NCBI GenBank assembly: GCA_964637295.1
Contig: CAZWWE010000003.1
Coordinates: forward strand, 37,565-101,564
Length of the DNA stretch: 64,000 bases
Reading direction: 5' to 3'
Origin: an uncultured Pseudomonadales bacterium
Lineage (GTDB): Bacteria > Patescibacteriota > Microgenomatia > UBA1400 > PJMF01
The notes beneath the pieces are model-generated. The model saw nothing but the letters and a program-made list of their open reading frames with translations, made no database searches and was not told the DNA's origin. Position 1 is the first letter of the stretch. Every line of letters begins with the position of its first letter. This document shows positions 38,915 to 42,408 of this stretch, in pieces. The position numbers were made by a program, and so were the translations under genes.

Positions 38915-39349
38915 TTACAAAACAAGTGCAAACAAACCCTGTACAAAGCCAATCAAAGCAGAGGCAAAAAGTAAGGAAAAGAATTGATTTAAGTGAAGAC
39001 CAAAAATCACTACGTTGCTGATCACAAAACCGGGCACAAAATAAGTAGCTAAATACAGAATAAAAACATTAATCACTAAAGAAAACAAGCCCAAAGTGAC
39101 CACGTTGATGGGCAAAAATAAAATTTTTAAGATTGGTCGCATAATTTTCTCGAGCAAAGTTAAAACTAGACCAGCAATGATCAGTGTAGCAGAGCTGTTG
39201 TAGCGAATATTGGGAAAAAACCAAGCTAAAAGAGCGATGGTTAAGATGGAACTAATCACTGCTTTAATAAATTTCATAAGTTCATTGTAAAAGATTTTTT
39301 GTTCTAAGTCGAGTGTGCTGTTTTTTTGCAAAGCGATGAGCTTCATCAC
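38915..39349 (-). CDS. DUF360 / phage-holin-4_2-like small membrane protein
   Basis: 4 transmembrane helices with LTLLEKIMRPILKILFLPINVVTLGLFSLVINVFILYLATYFVPGF, typical of the YvlD/DUF360 family. Its 5' end overlaps the uvrC 3' end. Confidence 0.4.
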   Translation of the reverse strand: MMKLIALQKNSTLDLEQKIFYNELMKFIKAVISSILTIALLAWFFPNIRYNSSATLIIAGLVLTLLEKIMRPILKILFLPINVVTLGLFSLVINVFILYLATYFVPGFVISNVVIFGLHLNQFFSLLFASALIGFVQGLFALVL

Positions 39350-40658
39350 GCAATTTTTGTAAAATTTTTAAAGTAGGATGTTCGCTTGGCAAATGAATTA
39401 CTTGGCTTTCTAAACCAGCTTTCTTTTGGCTATTTTTTTTAAGCAAAACCAAGCGGTCTGGGTTTTTGACTAAGCCAATGACTGGAATTTTGCTTTGCCA
39501 GATTTTACTGACGGCTCGTACCTGCCCTTTGCCACCATCGATTAAAATTAAATTTGGCTCGCCCCATTCTGGGTGTTTTTGTCGGCGTTCTAGCGCTTCT
39601 TGGAGCATGCCGTAGTCATTGGGCGTATTAAGTGAGCGAATTTTGAAAAATTTATATTGACTTTGATCAATTTGACCATTGGTCAGCACAACCATCGACA
39701 CAGTGGCATTTTGACCCAGAGTGTTACTCACGTCGTAAGCTTCAATGCGTGTTAATTTCTGTCTCAAATCAACTAAACCAGCCTGATGCAAAAGACGTCG
39801 TAGATGGACCAACGCTTCTTGACTCTCCTCTTGTGCAAAATTGGGTAAAATGAGTTCAGATTTGAGCTTGTATTGTTGACTAGTGATTTCTTCAATGAGT
39901 TGAATTTTATTTTTTATCACCAAAGCTTTTTCAAAAGCTTCTGCATCAGCCAAAACCAGCATCTCAGTTTTTAGTTTTTTGAGCAACTCTTTTTTTTTGC
40001 CTTTGAGAAAAAGCACGAGCTCATCAATTGTTTGACGATATTCCTGTGGAGAGATTGCACGCTCGCAAGCTCCTGAACACAAATCAAGATGATGATAAAA
40101 GCAAGCCTTTGTTTGAGAGCGATTGGCTTGATTACACCATTTGAAAATTGGCCGAATGATTTTCAGTAATTCTTTGAGCTTGAGAGCACTAGTGAAAGGT
40201 CCAAACAAGGCTAATTTTTGTTGATATTTTTTTTTGCTTAGATCAGTTTTGCGCACCCGCAGAATTCTGGGAAAAGTATCGTTACTAATCAATAAATAAA
40301 GATGCGATTTGTCGTCTTTGAGTAAACTATTAAAATATGGCTGGTGAGCTTTAATTAATTCTGCTTCAATGATGAGCGCTTCAAGTTCACTTTCGAGGAC
40401 GCGAAACTCCACTTTTTGCGCCAGTTCGGTCATTTTTTTGATTTTCTTTGAGAGCAACGGAGATCGCTTGTAGCTGGTGATCCTGTTCTTCAAGTTTTTG
40501 GCCTTGCCGACGTAAAGAATTTGCGAATCGGCGTCCAAAAAAGAATAAACTCCCGGTAAGGGTGGCAATGACGATAAAATAGATGCCCAAGCTAATGATT
40601 TTTTTGGGGTTTTCAACTTGGATTTGGAAGCTACTTCTAACGGCGAATTCATTTTCAA
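39282..40658 (-). CDS. uvrC: Excinuclease ABC subunit C (short form)
   Basis: GIY-YIG motif LPPLPGVYSFLDADSQILYVGKAKNLKNRITSY, followed by the UvrC central region and an RNase H-like endonuclease domain. The N-terminal ~90 codons overlap the upstream ORF in another frame. Confidence 0.85.
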   Translation of the reverse strand: MKMNSPLEVASKSKLKTPKKSLAWASILSSLPPLPGVYSFLDADSQILYVGKAKNLKNRITSYKRSPLLSKKIKKMTELAQKVEFRVLESELEALIIEAELIKAHQPYFNSLLKDDKSHLYLLISNDTFPRILRVRKTDLSKKKYQQKLALFGPFTSALKLKELLKIIRPIFKWCNQANRSQTKACFYHHLDLCSGACERAISPQEYRQTIDELVLFLKGKKKELLKKLKTEMLVLADAEAFEKALVIKNKIQLIEEITSQQYKLKSELILPNFAQEESQEALVHLRRLLHQAGLVDLRQKLTRIEAYDVSNTLGQNATVSMVVLTNGQIDQSQYKFFKIRSLNTPNDYGMLQEALERRQKHPEWGEPNLILIDGGKGQVRAVSKIWQSKIPVIGLVKNPDRLVLLKKNSQKKAGLESQVIHLPSEHPTLKILQKLRDEAHRFAKKQHTRLRTKNLLQ

Positions 40659-42408
40659 TGATTTGTCCTTCTTGCAGTATGGCGCTCACCTTAATTTTGT
40701 GATTGCTTTGCAATTGATTTTGTTTATTATAAACGCTGATCGGCAAGACGATTTTAGCAAACGGCAAAATTTTATAATTTTTTGTTTCTGAATTAATTTC
40801 AACTTCCGCATCTTCGCTGGTCACTCTGAGTTCTTTGAAATACCAGACTAGACCAGTTTGATTTAAAATTTGTATTTCGTAGTGGCCAGGCAGACTGAGC
40901 TCGTAAAATTTTTTGTTCAGTAAATTAATTTCTAAATTAGGCACTGATGATTGAAAATCTGTTTTAGAGAATTCTAAATAAATTTTTTTATTTTTTTCAT
41001 CACTTGCTCCAGAATAAGCACCGGCCGGATGAGGCAAAGTGCTAGAAACACCATTAATAGCCAGACTAATGTGATTAAGGTCAAAATGATTAAAATAATC
41101 AATACCTCCTGTGGTATCTTGCCAAGTAGGATCGATTCTCAACCAACTGGCTTGTTCTTGAGCATAATATTCTGGCCAAGTGTGTAAAATGTCATTTTCT
41201 AAATTACTAGGACGCAACTCTTCATTTTTGGAATAAGCAATGCCCACTACTCTACGAGCAGGAATTTGTTTTTGTCTAGCCAAAGTGATAAAGAGATCAG
41301 TGAATTCTTGACAAGTAGCGTTATTTTGATTTTTCGCCTCAATGGCGCTGGCTGCTCCCAGCCGTGCAAAGTTTTGATCAAGTGCTTGCTTGGTGTAATC
41401 TAATTTTTTGACGACAAAATCAGCAATTTCCTGAGGAGTTGCTAGCTGTTTACCAAGTTCAATGATTTTCGGATGATTGATTTCCCAAAATTTTTGTTCT
41501 TGTAAATGTTCAGTCAACACTTGACTAAAAGGAATGAGCGGGTTGGCAGTTAAAGTCAACAAAACTTGTGCCAACAACTCAACATTGAAAGAATTATTGG
41601 CGGGAATTTCGTAAGTGGCAATGAAATTACCGTCGGCATCTTCTTTAATATTTTGAGGCAAGGGATCGAGATTAAGATAATGAACTTTTTGATAAGGTGT
41701 TTCTGGTGGCAAAGTAATTTGAGTGAGCGCAGTTTGACTGGTGGGGTTATTTAGATAATAGTTGAGTTTCAAATCAAAGACTTGTTGATTGCCAAAAATC
41801 GCGGAAACTGATTGATTGCCAAGCTCACTATAAGTAATAATGTTGTAGTCGCCCTCTTGTTTGAGGCTAAAATTACTTGGACTGATGCGACTAGGAGTGT
41901 CAAAAATACTGGGCACGCGTAGCTCCAGTTGATAACTTTGATATTGATCATGTTTAGCTAGTTCTGGAATATTGATTTCCAAAACTTTGCCACTAATCAA
42001 AGCAATATCTTGGTCGGTATAGCTAATCGTGAGTTCATTGTTTTTACCTTCACCAATTACTTTCTCTTCAAAAACAACGTTAATATTGGTTTGGCCTTTT
42101 TGTTTAGTAATATCTGGAATTAGTTTTTTGCCATTATGTACAACCTCGATGTTCTCAAGTTTAGTTGAGCTGACGATAATGCCATATTTGCTGACGAATA
42201 ATTCGGGAGTTTTATTTTTAATGGTGAATTTTTGTTCAACCAAAGTTTTGCCATTAGCAGTGATGGTATAAATACTATGTAAACTAATGGCGAAATTTTC
42301 CGTACCTTCTTGTGCAGCAATGTTTGTTTGGCTCAAAATTAACAAGCAAAAAAGACTTAAAATTAGTTCAGCAATTTTTTTCAAACCACGATGATTAAAA
42401 GTCAACAT
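40387..42408 (-). CDS. Exported transglutaminase-like (papain-fold) domain protein with a C-terminal transmembrane anchor
   Basis: Signal peptide, N-terminal beta-rich domains, a transglutaminase-core Cys motif NATCQEFTDLFITLARQKQIPARRVVG (compare GxCxxFA...GIPAR), a C-terminal transmembrane helix and a basic tail. Confidence 0.6.
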   Translation of the reverse strand: MLTFNHRGLKKIAELILSLFCLLILSQTNIAAQEGTENFAISLHSIYTITANGKTLVEQKFTIKNKTPELFVSKYGIIVSSTKLENIEVVHNGKKLIPDITKQKGQTNINVVFEEKVIGEGKNNELTISYTDQDIALISGKVLEINIPELAKHDQYQSYQLELRVPSIFDTPSRISPSNFSLKQEGDYNIITYSELGNQSVSAIFGNQQVFDLKLNYYLNNPTSQTALTQITLPPETPYQKVHYLNLDPLPQNIKEDADGNFIATYEIPANNSFNVELLAQVLLTLTANPLIPFSQVLTEHLQEQKFWEINHPKIIELGKQLATPQEIADFVVKKLDYTKQALDQNFARLGAASAIEAKNQNNATCQEFTDLFITLARQKQIPARRVVGIAYSKNEELRPSNLENDILHTWPEYYAQEQASWLRIDPTWQDTTGGIDYFNHFDLNHISLAINGVSSTLPHPAGAYSGASDEKNKKIYLEFSKTDFQSSVPNLEINLLNKKFYELSLPGHYEIQILNQTGLVWYFKELRVTSEDAEVEINSETKNYKILPFAKIVLPISVYNKQNQLQSNHKIKVSAILQEGQIIENEFAVRSSFQIQVENPKKIISLGIYFIVIATLTGSLFFFGRRFANSLRRQGQKLEEQDHQLQAISVALKENQKNDRTGAKSGVSRPRK

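Follow-up and report, generated by a model that had tools for sequence, protein, structure and literature searches.

In a survey of 338 genomes, no overlap between co-directional genes longer than 60 bp was accepted as real, and the longest real case was the 56 bp shared by holD and rimI (PMC2478687). The nearest precedent for two housekeeping genes that share more than 100 nucleotides (nt) comes from Thermus, where rpmH is nested in rnpA (Feltens et al., 2003; described in PMC9841429). Another described system, the rlo operon of Pseudomonas (RloA/RloB/RloC), affects envelope-related phenotypes (PMC12239564). Here we analyze a 64,000-nt stretch of contig CAZWWE010000003.1 (the window, meaning that whole stretch), in which the 3' end of a gene for a transglutaminase-like envelope protein overlaps the 5' end of uvrC on the same strand and genes for RloB-like and RloC-like proteins follow downstream. 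We conclude that ~266 nt are very probably read in two frames, as a genuine dual-coding segment kept by selection. We found no report of this overlap in the literature, and searches on long overlaps in Patescibacteria gave nothing specific.

Anatomy of the overlap and its occurrence among relatives

The uvrC frame is the transglutaminase frame shifted by +1, and the shared segment is laid out as follows (aa, amino acids).

40387-42408, minus strand: gene for the transglutaminase-like envelope protein (673 aa plus a TGA stop at 40387-40389; PF01841)
39282-40652, minus strand: uvrC (456 aa from the putative start ATG at 40652; the first in-frame start codon is a TTG at 40658)
40387-40652, minus strand: dual-coding overlap, 266 nt counted from the ATG, or 272 nt (40387-40658) counted from the TTG
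40534-40599, minus strand: C-terminal transmembrane helix, aa 604-625 (22 residues, IISLGIYFIVIATLTGSLFFFG)
40390-40533, minus strand: predicted cytoplasmic tail, aa 626-673 (48 aa, RRFANSLRRQGQKLEEQDHQLQAISVALKENQKNDRTGAKSGVSRPRK), lying on UvrC GIY-YIG codons ~43-90 and including the stretch QGQKLEEQDHQLQAISVALK
40338-40553, minus strand: UvrC GIY-YIG nuclease domain (Pfam)
40545-40547, 40512-40514, 40503-40505 and 40482-40484, minus strand: codons of UvrC Y38, Y49, K52 and R59, inside the overlap
40365-40367 and 40329-40331, minus strand: codons of UvrC E98 and N110, outside the overlap
40666-40671, minus strand: GAAGGA Shine-Dalgarno-like motif, 13 nt before the uvrC ATG and 7 nt before the TTG, within the transglutaminase codons K-E-G-Q

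An earlier note on this DNA had placed uvrB, uvrA, the transglutaminase-like gene and uvrC in this order on one strand, with a 272-nt overlap in a different frame that covers the GIY-YIG N-terminus of UvrC. The map of open reading frames (ORFs) bears out the order, on the minus strand, as well as the extent of the overlap and its +1 offset, and Y38, Y49, K52 and R59 do lie inside it. The same note took the last ~90 codons of the upstream gene for a cytoplasmic tail, which holds for 48 residues; the others are ~18 juxtamembrane residues and the 22 residues of the transmembrane helix.

The bases of the transmembrane helix also encode UvrC residues ~21-42 in the other frame (…LAWASILSSLPPLPGVYSFLD). 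The Ser (TCN) and Leu codons in which the UvrC leader is rich, together with the VY(W/S)FL strand of UvrC, yield NTN codons (T in the second position) in the transglutaminase frame and hence hydrophobic residues, while the Lys/Asn/Ala-rich YVGKAKNLK reads LRRQGQK, whose positive charge suits the cytoplasmic flank of a membrane anchor. In chemical terms the two codes can thus be reconciled, allowing together a predicted membrane helix and its positive-inside flank. A membrane helix followed by a basic stretch is C-terminal in nearly all listed full-length homologues, including basal ones that have no overlap.

Frameshifts and wrong starts are the usual causes of long co-directional overlaps (Palleja et al., PMC2478687), and A7 and T6 runs occur in this region. 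It is nevertheless very improbable that the overlap described here stems from a frameshift introduced in sequencing or assembly close to the end of the transglutaminase-like gene, or from a uvrC start called too far upstream. An independent assembly, a Logan contig (SRR9860464), is 100% identical across the region, a 673-aa protein with 97% identity exists in ENA, and the same arrangement and frame offset recur in ~70 independently assembled genomes. Moreover, the GIY-YIG domain itself lies inside the overlap, so that no choice of start codon removes it, and the membrane helix is a feature of the family. The same method did expose a second overlap, between uvrC and the holin-like gene that follows it, as an artefact (described below). 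Between the two possibilities that the earlier note had set out, a genuine overlap or a frameshift or start-site artefact, the conserved frame and the signatures of selection speak for the first and against the second. The mis-annotation class of Palleja et al. (2008), in which a wrong start, a frameshift or a stop mutation makes one gene depart in length from its orthologues, does not accommodate this overlap either: lengths are consistent in the 52 closest protein clusters and in 22 loci, and a conserved domain lies inside the shared segment.

Relatives were found in 576 stretches of species-representative genomes, all of them Microgenomates-type Patescibacteria, and the analysis covered 80 genome loci, 6 metagenome loci and 6 further contigs; the metagenome scan contributed just 5 close loci. 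Many genome records with this clearly Patescibacteria-type locus are titled 'uncultured Pseudomonadales', 'Gammaproteobacteria', 'Vitreimonas' or 'Methylococcaceae', and they are probably mislabeled bins or contaminant contigs. The order uvrA, transglutaminase-like gene, uvrC is found in ~75/81 related loci, and the +1 frame offset in every locus whose overlap reaches the PGVY/YVGKAK region of UvrC. When the stop of the transglutaminase gene is measured from the Tyr of UvrC YVGKAK (Y49 in the window), the loci are distributed as follows.

Basal lineages, 7 loci: stop at -55 to -90; overlap 0-30 nt; uvrC ATG at ~-84
Tail-less group, 31 loci: stop at -7 to -13 ('...FRRKR*'); overlap ~130-155 nt; uvrC ATG at ~-123 to -204 in nearly all
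Intermediate loci, 26: stop at +11 to +71; longer overlap
The window's clade, 22 loci: stop at +122 to +185; overlap ~260-330 nt

A neighbor-joining tree of UvrC, restricted to its non-overlapping part, has the basal lineages as its first branches and shows the long-tail clade to which the window belongs as monophyletic. The intermediate loci are scattered over this tree, which indicates repeated losses of the stop. The gene had been described as 'inserted' or 'wedged' between uvrA and uvrC, words that suggest a recent event; this description is not quite apt, as the order of the three genes is ancient and is also seen in basal lineages. All 22 sampled loci of the window's clade have the tail, as do the 52 closest protein clusters with the exception of one truncated entry; distant orthologues stop just before YVGKAK. 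Conservation of the tail among orthologues, which the earlier note had raised as a check, is thus confirmed throughout the sampled members of the window's clade and fails in distant orthologues. Because every sampled member of that clade keeps the tail, the ORF extension was fixed in evolution and is not an artefact. In two long-tail members (L089 and L092), small unannotated ORFs, and not uvrA, lie directly upstream of the transglutaminase-like gene, and the uvrC overlap is retained. Since the overlap survives there without an adjacent uvrA, the link between the transglutaminase-like gene and uvrC is tighter than the one between uvrA and the transglutaminase-like gene.

The downstream partner scores 336.5 bits against the UvrC equivalog TIGR00194 (cut-off 285.45) and matches the Pfam families GIY-YIG (aa 36-107) and UvrC_RNaseH_dom (PF08459, E=7e-40), with a sub-threshold match to the UVR motif (18.8 bits versus 21.5). 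In the PDB, its N-terminal domain matches 1yd6 and 1ycz and its C-terminal domain matches 8b0q and 2nrt; PGVY, YVGKAK and R59 align residue by residue to the GIY-YIG domains of T. maritima and B. caldotenax. We take Y38, Y49, K52, R59, E98 and N110 to be the counterparts of the T. maritima UvrC active-site residues Y19, Y29, K32, R39, E76 and N88. The protein ends straight after the RNase H-like domain (aa 444 of 458); Pfam gives no helix-hairpin-helix (HhH) match in it, and the C-terminal (HhH)2 domain is absent. Such a short UvrC is common to the relatives (446-495 aa in 73/75 related UvrC proteins), and by its equivalog score the short form is still UvrC.

The position of the uvrC start was approached through the UvrC N-termini of relatives, as the earlier note had suggested. 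Approximately residue 26-28 of the window's protein corresponds to the canonical UvrC N-terminus (profile position 5, PDB residue 9), and in the basal relatives UvrC begins 14 residues ahead of PGVY. No start codon lies near this basal-type position in the window, which at -81 carries TTA in place of the TTG of many relatives. An ATG at -138, which is 46 codons ahead of Y49, is conserved in 15/16 loci of the window's clade, plus extra loci, and GAAGG or GGAG stands 12-13 nt upstream of the uvrC ATG in 15/16 loci of that clade. We infer that uvrC starts at the ATG at 40652, which would give UvrC a ~20-residue N-terminal extension rich in Ser, Pro and Lys. A TTG at -102 or near -81 was rejected as the start: neither is conserved in the window's clade, and the window itself has TTA at -81. 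Given the transglutaminase protein, the uvrC leader would be open by chance with P ~0.013, a value that is not used as evidence here, as the N-terminal extension was not separated from the canonical N-terminus. Even with the most conservative uvrC start, the overlap exceeds 200 nt in the window and is at least ~77 nt in the tail-less group.

On six related contigs the publicly called uvrC products measure 231-387 aa and have no GIY-YIG match, and where both ends are readable these truncated calls overlap the upstream gene by ~44-68 nt or not at all; on Logan contig L001 (region 6451-6927) the uvrC call begins 47 nt ahead of the stop of the transglutaminase-like gene. Prodigal and similar gene finders let same-strand genes overlap by no more than ~60 nt, which would account for the truncated calls. 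If such calls were instead taken at face value, UvrC would start downstream of the transglutaminase stop, without its GIY-YIG domain, and the N-terminal similarity would be a decaying remnant. We hold this to be extremely improbable, because amino-acid identity over UvrC codons 35-111 is 0.69-0.82 versus 0.64 for the remainder of UvrC, no active-site residue has been lost, and pNN/pSN is 0.31, indicating strong purifying selection on the UvrC frame.

Another reading is a programmed ribosomal frameshift that fuses both frames into one protein, and homopolymer runs lie in the overlap (A7 at ~40600-40610, T6, A7). This explanation is barely credible: a +1 shift before the membrane helix would join an exported enzyme to a cytoplasmic nuclease without an anchor, the register of the A7 in the transglutaminase frame gives no X_XXY_YYZ heptamer, and UvrC has a conserved ATG and an open leader of its own.

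Probable selection on the tail frame

Sequence conservation of the tail has to be read with caution. Its motif SLRRQGQKLEE is exactly the +1-frame shadow of UvrC ILYVGKAKNLK, TGSL(F/L)(F/V)F(G/R)R relates to PGVY(S/W)FLD in the same way, and tblastn alignments of the window's tail read straight through the stop codons of distant loci. Owing to these shadow effects, a conserved tail sequence cannot be taken as a sign of function, and tests of another kind are called for. The same observations are what would be expected if the tail were translated but neutral, a read-through product of stop loss that is open by descent and whose conservation is a shadow of the GIY-YIG domain, since shadowing alone yields similarity. 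The short extensions (+11 to +71) scattered over the tree are likewise what neutral stop losses predict.

A first set of tests concerns the stops that the UvrC code would place in the tail frame. A stop appears there wherever T is the last base of a UvrC codon and the next codon begins with AA, AG or GA, and ~15-19 such positions exist per sequence in this Lys/Asn/Glu-rich region. If the UvrC protein is left unchanged and its synonymous codons are picked at random according to local usage, in which 38.7% end in T, the frame has a probability of 0.0004-0.006 per locus of being open as far as the observed stop, and of 0.0004 in the window. Stops were also counted over a stretch of 45 transglutaminase-frame codons that begins 3 UvrC codons ahead of Y49 and takes in the terminal stop of each group. 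There the tail-less group averages 4.45 stops (range 1-9). In the window's clade, 12 loci have none, and the four loci with a stop at +122 have only the tail's own stop and one just after it.

The third positions themselves behave in the same way. At stop-creating UvrC third positions of the window's clade, T occurs in 0/238 cases, plus 0/96 in six further loci (0/334 together), although these positions do vary (A 28%, C 35%, G 37%). The tail-less group has 30% T at such positions, and at the codon that forms the natural stop of the tail T is back in 11/16 loci. UvrC synonymous sites are near saturation in the window's clade (0.505 observed versus 0.46 expected at saturation, as the fraction of identical codons among identical residues, in which a higher value means less variation), and because of this the persistence of an open frame needs selection.

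Synonymous variation in UvrC points the same way. By the measure just given, codons 50-88 reach 0.607 in the window's clade versus 0.505 elsewhere, and the best 39-column background block reaches 0.573; in the tail-less group the same codons stand at 0.394 against a background of 0.411. The excess in the window's clade persists at sites that are unable to create stops (0.57 versus 0.495). Codons 35-48, whose bases also encode the membrane helix, show constraint in the window's clade (0.805 versus 0.505) and in the tail-less group (0.543 versus 0.411) alike.

A neutral tail is therefore unlikely. It is at odds with the absence of T from all 334 stop-creating positions despite near-saturated, varying synonymous sites, with the retention of the tail in the closest protein clusters, and with a synonymous constraint in codons 50-88 that is confined to the clade with the tail.

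Several observations weigh against a selected dual-coding segment. First, the OLGenie-like ratio pNN/pNS comes to 0.76 in the tail frame, and its bootstrap interval (0.53-1.11) includes 1, as a neutral tail would predict, in sequences near saturation; beside the controls (1.10 for the tail-less group and 1.6 for non-overlapping UvrC) the ratio has the expected direction, and it is not significant alone. Second, the long-tail clade is monophyletic, so that the open frame arose once and sequence counts are not independent events. Third, the distal third of the tail is variable and modeled with low confidence (predicted local distance difference test, pLDDT, 35-65). Finally, the uvrC start is itself inferred in a genome with few Shine-Dalgarno motifs, and the GAAGGA motif counts as weak evidence for it because most genes here have no such motif; no recognizable motif precedes the uvrC ATG in the tail-less group.

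On balance we favor a dual-coding segment kept by selection. Frame A would end the exported transglutaminase-like enzyme with juxtamembrane residues, a membrane anchor and a 48-residue basic tail, and frame B (A+1) would start UvrC at the internal ATG at 40652 and run through its N-terminal extension and canonical N-terminal helix into the GIY-YIG domain, of which it would encode the first half with Y38, Y49, K52 and R59. Both proteins would be made from one transcript by independent initiation, the overlap being too long for termination-reinitiation coupling. Such a segment would have formed by overprinting, in which the uvrC start migrated upstream and the transglutaminase stop migrated downstream. 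In a first step, the ancestor would have had adjacent genes with an overlap of 0-30 nt. In a second, in the ancestor of most of the group, the membrane-helix region and the uvrC N-terminus would have come to share ~130-155 nt, with a stop just before YVGKAK. In a third, this stop would have been lost repeatedly, and in the window's clade a long tail would have been fixed and then held open by selection.

The tail is basic and probably helical, and the predicted membrane topology would place it in the cytoplasm. Our best guess is that it forms a membrane-proximal cytoplasmic helix that stabilizes the topology or contacts a cytoplasmic partner. A bolder proposal, which we offer tentatively and regard as rather doubtful, is that the anchor and the active-site half of the UvrC GIY-YIG nuclease are co-written in 130-330 nt across a class-level group of Patescibacteria and that the new ~48-aa tail, overprinted on the catalytic motif in the window's clade, has a selected function, possibly in coupling the extracytoplasmic enzyme to the cytoplasmic RloC-like ATP-grasp/MATCAP module; it would then be the longest documented selection-maintained co-directional overlap of two ancient bacterial genes, with natural intermediates.

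The transglutaminase-like protein and the neighboring genes

The upstream partner of the overlap has 421 database homologues, matches PF01841 (Transglut_core, aa 323-427, 49.2 bits versus a cut-off of 23, E=7e-13) and matches no NCBIfam model. An AlphaFold model built from 87 homologues (mean pLDDT 86.9) divides it into a helix (6-25), two beta-sandwiches (39-285), the core (299-452), a further beta-sandwich (476-591) and a long helix (601-655) that holds the membrane segment and runs on into the tail with dropping confidence. The features outside the overlap are as follows.

42334-42393, minus strand: N-terminal hydrophobic helix, aa 6-25 (model helix; MLTFNHRGLKKIAELILSLFCLLILSQTNIAA/QEG)
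41053-41514, minus strand: transglutaminase/papain-like core, aa 299-452 (Pfam match and model)
41311-41313, 41182-41184 and 41131-41133, minus strand: codons of the triad Cys366, His409 and Asp426

The earlier note had recognized a transglutaminase Cys motif, a signal-type N-terminus and a C-terminal membrane anchor. In an alignment of the 87 homologues, C366 is nearly invariant (present in at least 90%) and H409 and D426 are invariant, and the model predicts hydrophobic helices at both ends. The first of these, aa 6-25, may be a signal peptide, presumably cleaved, or a signal anchor. The closest solved folds are 3isr (E=7e-10), 3kd4 and the periplasmic domain of TgpA (6g49), and eukaryotic transglutaminases match as well; the protein adds a new member to an already known superfamily, and its triad is apparently active. 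In Foldseek, the N-terminal beta-sandwiches (aa 39-285, 41554-42294) match a eukaryotic oligosaccharyltransferase subunit (8b6l_O, 6s7o_E, 6c26_1) with E ~1e-7 and also the N-terminal domain of leukotriene A4 hydrolase, resemblances of the model that may reflect only a generic beta-sandwich likeness.

The other genes of the locus lie on the same strand.

45369-47483, minus strand: uvrB (704 aa; Pfam UvrB_inter, UvrB, Helicase_C, UVR)
42419-45361, minus strand: uvrA (980 aa; Pfam UvrA_inter, UvrA_DNA-bind, ABC_tran)
38915-39277, minus strand: PF04020 (holin-like, four transmembrane segments) membrane protein (Pfam; ATG at 39277 taken as start)
37861-38880, minus strand: 7TM_transglut (RloB-like) membrane protein (PF14402, E=4e-29)
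36569-37855, minus strand: ATP-grasp ligase (ATPgrasp_ST; RimK-related; RloC-like; PF14397, E=4e-57; TIGR02291)
35587-36576, minus strand: MATCAP / QEGLA-motif putative carboxypeptidase (PF08014, E=1.4e-26; TIGR02421)

Only 10 nt separate the end of uvrA from the start of the transglutaminase-like gene. A TATAAT box lies ~15 nt upstream of the uvrB ATG, and consensus scans for an internal promoter or terminator gave nothing significantly over the shuffled expectation. Across ~15 genes (29833-47656), most start codons are preceded by A/T-rich sequence without a Shine-Dalgarno-like motif, and the host appears to rely little on such motifs.

The ORF list contains a second same-strand overlap, of 68 nt (39282-39349), between the 3' end of uvrC and a holin-like ORF that begins with a GTG at 39349. 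The first 24 residues of this ORF are a shadow of the UvrC C-terminus, and several relatives have stops in frame ahead of the equivalent of M25. Because of these upstream stops, the overlap is a mechanical ORF-extension artefact, and it fits the class of mis-annotated co-directional overlaps (Palleja et al., 2008). The most likely start of the holin-like gene is the ATG at 39277, 4 nt past the uvrC stop.

Genes for 7TM_transglut, ATP-grasp and MATCAP proteins follow uvrC in 51/59 overlapping-type loci and in 0/5 basal loci. The 7TM_transglut protein and the ATPgrasp_ST ligase occur together as in the rlo operon (PF14402 and PF14397; RloB and TIGR02291 profiles). The 7TM protein matches only positions 314-507 of 508 of the RloB profile, its C-terminal half, at 67.8 versus a cut-off of 900, and it carries no fused transglutaminase domain. 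No secreted retropepsin-like RloA protease was found in a scan that covered eight ORFs and not the remainder of the window. The idea of the earlier note that the transglutaminase-like protein may be the extracytoplasmic partner of this ligase and membrane module is plausible and fits the conserved gene order.

Comparison with known systems

A conserved overlap of this length is very rare in bacteria. Long co-directional overlaps there are usually taken for annotation errors, and the overlap of 130-330 nt described here is a well-supported counter-example, conserved in many species-level genomes with active-site codons inside it. The graded series from 0-30 through ~140 to ~270-330 nt, together with its internal controls, makes it a good natural system for the study of overprinting and of how two codes are reconciled. 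There is also a practical side: since gene callers truncate uvrC and drop its GIY-YIG domain, reconstructions of metabolism and repair in these Patescibacteria could wrongly infer that 3' incision is missing. Finally, the locus points to a conserved link between nucleotide-excision-repair genes and an envelope transglutaminase and Rlo-like module.

The likeness to the rlo operon lies in the downstream genes, which encode RloB-like 7TM_transglut and RloC-like ATP-grasp proteins (PMC12239564). The two systems differ in several ways. Pseudomonas RloB has a fused, inactive transglutaminase domain, whereas the 7TM protein here has none; instead, a separate transglutaminase-like protein with an apparently active triad is encoded two genes upstream, with uvrC between. 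In the position of RloA, this locus has a MATCAP-like peptidase rather than a retropepsin-like protease. The transglutaminase-like protein itself shares the core fold, the Cys-His-Asp triad and the extracytoplasmic location with bacterial transglutaminase-like putative cysteine proteases (PF01841) such as those of Cytophaga (3isr), Parabacteroides (3kd4) and P. aeruginosa (TgpA, 6g49), and differs from them in its arrangement of signal helix, two beta-sandwiches, core, further beta-sandwich, C-terminal anchor and tail.

As an overlap, the segment can be set beside three kinds of described cases. Like the rnpA/rpmH pair of Thermus (PMC9841429), it involves two conserved same-strand housekeeping genes in different frames that share more than 100 nt, both products being real in the Thermus case. 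In Thermus, however, rpmH lies wholly within rnpA and the two use one initiation site, AUGGAUG, whereas here a 3' end lies over a 5' end, the starts are ~1.75 kb apart, a membrane anchor and an enzyme active site are covered, and the two frames would both be translated. The holD/rimI overlap of Enterobacteria is likewise a conserved co-directional 3'/5' overlap of two unrelated functional genes (PMC2478687), but it measures 32-56 nt, compared with 130-330 nt across conserved catalytic residues here. Viral overprinted genes and long bacterial overlapping genes such as the antisense pairs of P. aeruginosa (PMC8850804) share with this locus the process of overprinting and the tests that reveal it, namely suppressed synonymous change and an open alternative frame; in those cases a young, lineage-restricted ORF lies in an old gene, often in antisense, whereas this overlap joins two genes that are both old and widely conserved, with novelty confined to the tail and the UvrC leader. 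Overprinted overlapping genes are thus already known, and what is unusual in this case is the length of the overlap, the age of both partners and the coverage of catalytic motifs.

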